64,000 bases of DNA, from assembly GCF_003334255.1 (NCBI RefSeq), contig NZ_QOWU01000010.1; one strand, written 5' to 3'. Below, in pieces: positions 56,703-56,911 of the stretch. Within the stretch, counting starts at the first letter, position 1, and each line of letters starts with the position of its first letter. A program made the position numbers and the translations under genes. The notes under the pieces are model-generated. The model saw only the letters and a list, made by a program, of their open reading frames with translations, searched no databases and had not been told where the DNA came from. Source of the DNA: Escherichia coli (GTDB lineage Bacteria > Pseudomonadota > Gammaproteobacteria > Enterobacterales > Enterobacteriaceae).

Positions 56703-56729
56703 CGCCGGAGAGAAAAATCTCCGGCGTTT
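56703..56729. terminator. Intrinsic terminator downstream of uidC
   Basis: CGCCGGAGA-GAAAAA-TCTCCGGCG then TTT. Confidence 0.7.
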
Positions 56730-56757
56730 CAGATTGTTGACAAAGTGCGCGTTTTTT

Positions 56758-56858
56758 ATGCCGGATGCGGCGTAAACGCCTTATCCAGCCTACAAAAACT
56801 CATAAATTCAAAGTGTTGCAGGAAAAGGTAGGCCTGATAAGCGTAGCGCATCAGGCAA
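56758..56858. repeat. REP/BIME element between uidC and ydgA
   Basis: REP motifs GCCGGATGCGGCGTAAACGCCTTATCCAGCCTAC and GTAGGCCTGATAAGCGTAGCGCATCAGGCA in inverted orientation. Confidence 0.8.
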
Positions 56859-56883
56859 TCTCTGGTTTGTTTTCAGATGAAAA

Positions 56884-56911
56884 CGCCGGAGTGAAAATTC
56901 TCCGGCGTTTT
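56884..56911. terminator. Second near-identical hairpin with U-tract, downstream of ydgA
   Basis: CGCCGGAG-TGAAAATT-CTCCGGCG then TTTT; A-run on the other side. Confidence 0.65.

Follow-up and report, generated by a model that had tools for sequence, protein, structure and literature searches.

BIME-1 elements of Escherichia coli have defined ends, are frequently bracketed by direct copies of a hairpin specific to the locus, and are lost precisely between those copies. We consider it likely that BIME-1 is a small element of the transposable type whose insertion duplicates the whole of a target hairpin, and that the twin hairpins then mediate its precise loss. That the duplication is made at insertion is suggested by the structure of the loci described below.

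In the window, by which we mean the whole 64-kb stretch of DNA analysed, the element lies between the stop codons of two convergent genes, that is, in extragenic sequence at their 3′ ends. uidC (55430–56695, + strand, stop codon 56693–56695), recognised as an open reading frame and by the uidC annotation of matching genomes, points its 3′ end toward the element from the left, and ydgA (56921–58429, − strand, stop codon 56921–56923) faces it from the right. Hairpin copy 1 (56701–56729, AACGCCGGAGAGAAAAATCTCCGGCGTTT; stem AACGCCGGAGA/TCTCCGGCGTT, loop GAAAAA, ΔG −20.6 kcal/mol) is the left of two 29-bp direct repeats and is followed by the left outer motif of BIME-1 (56730–56758, + strand, CAGATTGTTGACAAAGTGCGCGTTTTTTA), which forms the left terminal inverted repeat and stands at the same offset in 27 loci. 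Then come a Y-type REP with CTAC at its end (56759–56793, + strand; the Y pattern with one mismatch), the 34-nt L linker (56794–56827, + strand), which fits CCTAC N9-12 AATTCAANNTNTTGCAG, the pattern that fetched other BIME-1 loci, and a 30-nt Z1-type REP starting with GTAG (56828–56857, + strand), which is inverted relative to the Y REP and aligns with 27 other loci. The right outer motif (56858–56881, + strand, ATCTCTGGTTTGTTTTCAGATGAA; consensus aTTTTGCGTTTGTCATCAgTCTcA) forms the right terminal inverted repeat and adjoins hairpin copy 2 (56882–56910, AACGCCGGAGTGAAAATTCTCCGGCGTTT), the right direct repeat, whose 12-bp stem AAAACGCCGGAG/CTCCGGCGTTTT occupies 56880–56911 (ΔG −21.0 kcal/mol, TTTT on both sides). 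The element thus measures 152 bp, and 152 bp plus one hairpin copy of 29 bp make 181 bp, the start-to-start distance of the two hairpins. Judged by its sequence, it is an ordinary BIME-1 (RIP) copy.

A sequence-only reading of the window had noted two near-identical hairpins about 180 bp apart around an inverted REP pair, and this holds: the copies agree at 27 of 29 positions and the spacing is 181 bp. The 24-nt hairpin core occurs at these two places only in the 64-kb window, with none expected by chance (100 shuffles). The same reading placed a U-run beside each hairpin, which is right in that T runs are present, but these are short. Copy 1 is followed by TTT when read on the + strand and by ATTTTTT when read on the − strand; for copy 2 it is TTTT whichever strand is read. 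In a simple terminator scan only copy 1 on the − strand passed, with ATTTTTT after an 11-bp stem, and each remaining pairing of hairpin and strand has just 3–4 T. Both strands fold into two strong hairpins plus REP stems (z about −7), and a search of Rfam returned sub-threshold REP-like matches only (a naRNA4-like match at the Y REP). An 8-mer, TTTCAGAT, is found just inside both hairpins (56727–56734 and 56871–56878). As a product of the duplication it was rejected, since it is missing at the corresponding positions in E. whittamii and in strain GF4-3, and it thus appears to be a lineage-specific coincidence outside the duplication.

The long layout is present in 1,751 of 5,426 complete E. 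coli genomes. In a spread sample of the remaining genomes the place measures 420 bp as opposed to 601 bp, nearly all being exactly 181 bp shorter. Three short alleles were aligned, and each has a single hairpin with the loop of copy 1, fused directly to the right flank of copy 2; what the long allele has in addition is therefore 181 bp, comprising the REP pair and one hairpin copy. The strain comparison that the sequence-only reading had proposed for the inner REP pair thus shows the pair and one hairpin present or absent together as an exact 181-bp unit, and the one-hairpin short allele and the exact indel lend support to its suggestion of a duplicated terminator with a REP cluster between the copies. 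For a search for precise loss, a synthetic allele made of the window's own flanks minus the 181 bp was sought in natural genomes. Strain Z1323PEC0010 matches it without a break at 100%, and H9Ecoli at 99.8%; both strains have 0–1 mismatches in 380 bp on each side and carry the window's own haplotype. Since these loss alleles sit on the window haplotype, precise loss of the 181-bp unit is recurrent and recent.

The spacer from copy 1 to the Y REP is matched more weakly at about 6 places in each E. coli genome, and these matches led to other Y-L-Z1 elements, while hairpin 2 with its inner flank belongs to this locus only (1–2 places per genome). A pattern made of the Y-REP end and linker fetched 120 metagenome stretches and 7 viral-contig stretches, the viral contigs yielding few usable loci; in this one pattern scan of metagenome contigs the stretches collapsed to 27 distinct true elements. 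When the 27 loci were aligned, conservation began 29–30 nt left of the Y REP (at the border T/CAGATTGTTGACAAAGTGCGCtTTGTTcA) and ended 24 nt right of the Z1 REP (aTTTTGCGTTTGTCATCAgTCTcA). Imperfect terminal inverted repeats are formed by the two outer motifs (CAGATTGTTGACAAA and TTTGTCATCAGTCTCA), which are conserved in the 27 loci and are presumably the ‘external’ A/B motifs of the original BIME-1 description. The left junction is nearly invariant (hairpin, then CAGATTG) and most right junctions fall directly after TCTCA; two loci (L114 and L122) have a truncated right outer motif. The repeated element proper is the 152-bp BIME-1 including its outer motifs.

At each of 28 independent BIME-1 loci, the 75-nt flanks on the two sides of the core (Y REP to Z1 REP) were compared with each other and the highest-scoring local direct repeat was taken; all 756 pairings of a left flank with the right flank of a different locus served as control. 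The control scores had a mean of 6.4 and a maximum of 11.5. Eight loci exceeded this maximum with scores of 13.5–25.5, among them a tandem array (L123, 13.5); the seven single-element loci, at 15–25.5, lie above all 756 controls, and for four further loci the null fraction is at most about 0.05. The left copy ends at about −29 from the Y REP and the right copy begins mostly +21 to +25 past the Z1 REP, and from these fixed offsets it follows that the hairpin copies directly abut the element ends. The repeat sequence is different at each locus, but each folds as a stable hairpin (ΔG −14 to −24 kcal/mol), and the repeats, variable in length (20–37 bp), agree with the palindrome within about 2 nt. 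The loops of the twin hairpins are co-oriented at all loci, and at fbaA-mscS the repeat takes in 16 nt beyond the main terminator hairpin, which identifies the copies as direct repeats. Cruciform resolution, tried as a source of the duplication, is excluded because it would invert one loop. Overall, about 11 of the 27 loci (~40% of the elements sampled) have twin hairpins, about 9 have a single flanking hairpin and about 5 lack one altogether; in the alignment of the sampled BIME-1, no short duplication was seen at the loci without twin hairpins. At one metagenome locus (L174) BIME-1 has GAGGCAC on its left and GTGCCTC on its right, an inverted pair, unlike the direct repeats at other loci.

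E. coli is also dimorphic at three further loci, namely fbaA-mscS, mltA-tcdA and tkt-prohibitin. Their short alleles lack 167 bp, 162 bp and 174–175 bp, respectively, which is the predicted length of the element plus one copy, and each keeps exactly one hairpin. In the tkt-prohibitin spacer of strain T-HYM1 (L223) the order is hairpin-element-hairpin-element-hairpin. With short, single and T-HYM1 double alleles, the unit exists in 0, 1 or 2 copies. The search for the hairpin-REP pair-hairpin architecture elsewhere, which the sequence-only reading had recommended, thus succeeded, and its surmise of a mobile or structured unit as opposed to two independent terminators is supported by the presence and absence among strains together with the recurrence at other loci.

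The steps that we favour would run as follows. The ancestral uidC-ydgA spacer would have contained a single G+C-rich hairpin, set between an A tract and a T tract and shared by both convergent genes as a two-way terminator. The 152-bp BIME-1 would have inserted at this hairpin with duplication of the entire 29-bp palindrome, leaving a full hairpin at each element end. As the simplest mechanism, we infer a geometry in which one element end is joined to one strand at one foot of the hairpin and the other end to the opposite strand at the other foot, after which the gaps are filled; with joining at the feet, the length of the duplication would equal that of the palindrome in every case. The twin hairpins, being direct repeats, would then allow recombination or replication slippage to remove the element and one copy (181 bp) and so restore the single terminator, and the same process could give the tandem second unit seen at another locus. 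With a complete hairpin kept on each side, uidC and ydgA would both still meet a terminator. Since the original T tract is found only at the distal copy, the element probably sits in the 3′ untranslated regions, and we infer that transcripts probably run through it before terminating. A broader proposal, which we put forward tentatively and think somewhat doubtful in its full form, is that BIME-1 are structure-targeting mobile elements, which would integrate where a G+C-rich hairpin, in most cases an intrinsic terminator, is extruded or folded, with their two ends joined at its feet and the whole palindrome duplicated as a result.

The duplication could instead have been made by replication template switching or unequal exchange, and not by staggered joining of the integrase type, an explanation that we regard as unlikely but serious. 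In the first version, replication stalls at the terminator hairpin, and the nascent strand takes a BIME-1 located elsewhere as its template and then re-copies the hairpin; in the second, a unit of hairpin plus element duplicates in tandem and is then partially deleted. Hairpins are replication pause sites, tandem gain and precise loss of the unit both occur, the repeat length of 20–37 bp follows the structure and not a fixed stagger, and the truncation of the right element end at two loci is also in keeping with a template switch. However, the near-invariant left junction and the right junctions after TCTCA fit defined ends better than microhomology, and the route through partial deletion requires at least two events at each of about 11 loci.

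Far less probable, in our view, is that the long allele is a recombination patch that brought in the REP pair, an orthologous hairpin and the 3′ end of ydgA beside a resident hairpin. There is a diverged haplotype patch over the last ~30 codons of ydgA (56915–57011, − strand) that is linked to the long and short alleles: over the ~100 bp of ydgA beside copy 2 these differ by 15–17 changes, most of which fall on third codon positions, as against about 1.4% deeper in ydgA and about 2% on the uidC side. Copy 2 and the hairpin of the short alleles, moreover, disagree at 2 of their 29 positions. E. whittamii, on the other hand, also has the hairpin-REP pair-hairpin layout, its sequence being about 10% diverged, and pairs it with a ydgA end of the type found in E. 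coli short alleles, a combination indicative of an old recombination patch with its limit near 57011. The twin architecture also recurs at about 10 unrelated loci, and precise loss took place on the long haplotype itself. A foreign patch was therefore dropped as the source of the twins: it explains the linked SNPs but neither the layout of E. whittamii nor the other loci, the linked ydgA end having been shuffled by recombination.

The presence of the layout in E. whittamii indicates that the BIME-1 insertion at uidC-ydgA is old, so that every empty allele seen there may be a secondary loss. Among 80 enterobacterial ydgA loci no BIME-1 was found besides that of E. whittamii. In one Escherichia lineage (L021, about 4007–4120) hairpin 2, the Z1 REP and part of the linker are left and the uid operon is absent. 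In E. albertii (L015, about 4007–4070), where the uid operon is also absent from this place, one hairpin abuts an apparent 24-nt right outer motif, and the break falls exactly at the border of REP and outer motif; the 24-nt stretch is probably a remnant of the element. The ~18 nt to the left of copy 2 that E. albertii has in common with the window were considered as ancestral ydgA flank, a candidate that was rejected because they are the right outer motif of the element. Just downstream of ydgA in Escherichia sp. MOD1-EC7003 (L005, about 3577–3640) lies one hairpin only; compared with E. coli its loop is inverted, and its stem is lengthened to a perfect 15-bp palindrome (GCCAAAACGCCGGAG / CTCCGGCGTTTTGGC); it adjoins a truncated uidC remnant. 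Changes in uidC were also seen in O157:H7 strain 1130 (L002), JJ2434 (L003) and PSS-15 (L088), the gene being annotated as a frameshifted pseudogene in two of these strains and truncated beside an IS66-family element in the third.

Recurrence of the architecture at several loci would also be expected of a composite mobile unit travelling as hairpin-REP-REP-hairpin, akin to the small composite repeat that the sequence-only reading had offered as an alternative. This is refuted, and we give it hardly any credence, as the hairpin sequence is unlike at every locus, hairpin 2 with its flank is found at this locus only, and the empty sites keep one copy of the local hairpin. With hairpins that vary by locus and a second hairpin that, with its flank, is unique in the genome, the hairpins are the duplicated target and not cargo of the element. 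Two independent terminators, alike by chance or convergence and with the REP pair incidentally between them, are refuted and of negligible probability: convergent genes each need a terminator and a T run lies on the outer side of each hairpin, but 27/29 identity including the loop stands against a chance expectation of zero, an exact one-copy empty allele exists, and the cross-locus controls are never as similar.

BIME-1, also named RIP or RIB elements, is said to have been described as Y REP, L linker and Z1 REP by Gilson in 1991 and Bachellier in 1994, and excisions of whole BIME-1 were reportedly noted by Bachellier in 1997. The element in the window has the same REP types, orientation, linker and extragenic 3′-end location as in the descriptions, which PMC3333891 summarises. 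The accounts covered here present BIME-1 as single copies and make no mention of flanking repeats of a target hairpin, whereas here one locus has two tandem units and about 40% of the copies have hairpin-length duplications. In the REP/BIME literature searched we found no mention of hairpin or terminator duplications; the primary BIME papers of the 1990s were outside the scope of that search. Twin-hairpin bracketing may thus be a new feature of a known element, or one described earlier in those papers. According to the literature (PMC3333891), the linker carries a site to which IHF binds.

In the REPIN/RAYT (TnpA-REP) system, two inverted REPs and their spacer constitute the replicative unit, and reports on REPINs include excisions as well as tandem arrays ‘including the flanking sequences’, with the mechanism of spread stated to be unknown (Bertels & Rainey 2011, PMC3116915; Nunvar 2010, PMC2817692; Ton-Hoang 2012, PMC3333891; Corneloup 2021, PMC8266576). 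The only enzyme proposed for REP mobility is TnpA-REP, an HUH tyrosine transposase whose group leaves the target unduplicated (PMC2817692). Its relatives, the IS200/IS605 enzymes, work on single strands and do not duplicate their target, in contrast to the hairpin duplication at BIME-1, and a duplication of 20–37 bp equal to the target palindrome is not predicted by the published REPIN models. Bacterial MITEs such as Correia elements make short duplications of fixed length, 2–9 bp (PMC3184786). Like BIME-1, MITEs are about 150 bp long and non-coding, have terminal inverted repeats, many copies and flanking target repeats, and fold into long hairpins, but their duplications are of fixed length, while those of BIME-1 vary from 20 to 37 bp and equal the target palindrome. 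Set beside the features by which MITEs are recognised, BIME-1 thus has the terminal inverted repeats and, at four loci, the polymorphism with a one-copy empty site, and lacks the short fixed target-site duplication.

Two other systems show similar outcomes. Cas1-Cas2 and casposons carry out two strand transfers on opposite strands at the borders of a ~28-bp, often palindromic sequence, and gap filling leaves the repeat duplicated; the E. coli Cas1-Cas2 reaction uses IHF. This geometry resembles the one proposed here for BIME-1, which itself has an IHF site, but the likeness is an analogy only: the Cas1-Cas2 insert is 33 bp as opposed to 152 bp, and nothing ties a Cas1-like enzyme to BIME-1. 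Precise excision of Tn10 and Tn5 between their target duplications occurs by RecA-independent slippage and is stimulated by inverted repeats. As with BIME-1, a palindromic insert between direct repeats is lost exactly, one copy being left and the site restored. Unlike those of Tn10 and Tn5, the BIME-1 repeats are 20–37 bp long and are hairpins themselves, and loss and tandem gain should thus be much more frequent.

REP and BIME sequences are the most abundant repeats of E. coli and have been known since the 1980s, and recent literature still calls their spread unknown. A reproducible footprint, in which the target duplication is the size of a hairpin, the element has defined ends, loss is precise and gain is in tandem, offers a testable handle on this question: it predicts the target (terminator-like hairpins), the junction sequences and the strand-joining geometry that any candidate enzyme must meet. 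It would also account for the location of BIME-1 at 3′ ends without loss of termination, and for the frequent exact indels among strains. If BIME-1 indeed targets structure, the REP/BIME family would for the first time have a defined insertion signature, one that would imply an integration chemistry other than the HUH single-strand models assumed now. The duplicated hairpins and their recurrence at BIME-1 copies are in any case a clue to how these repeats insert and are lost.
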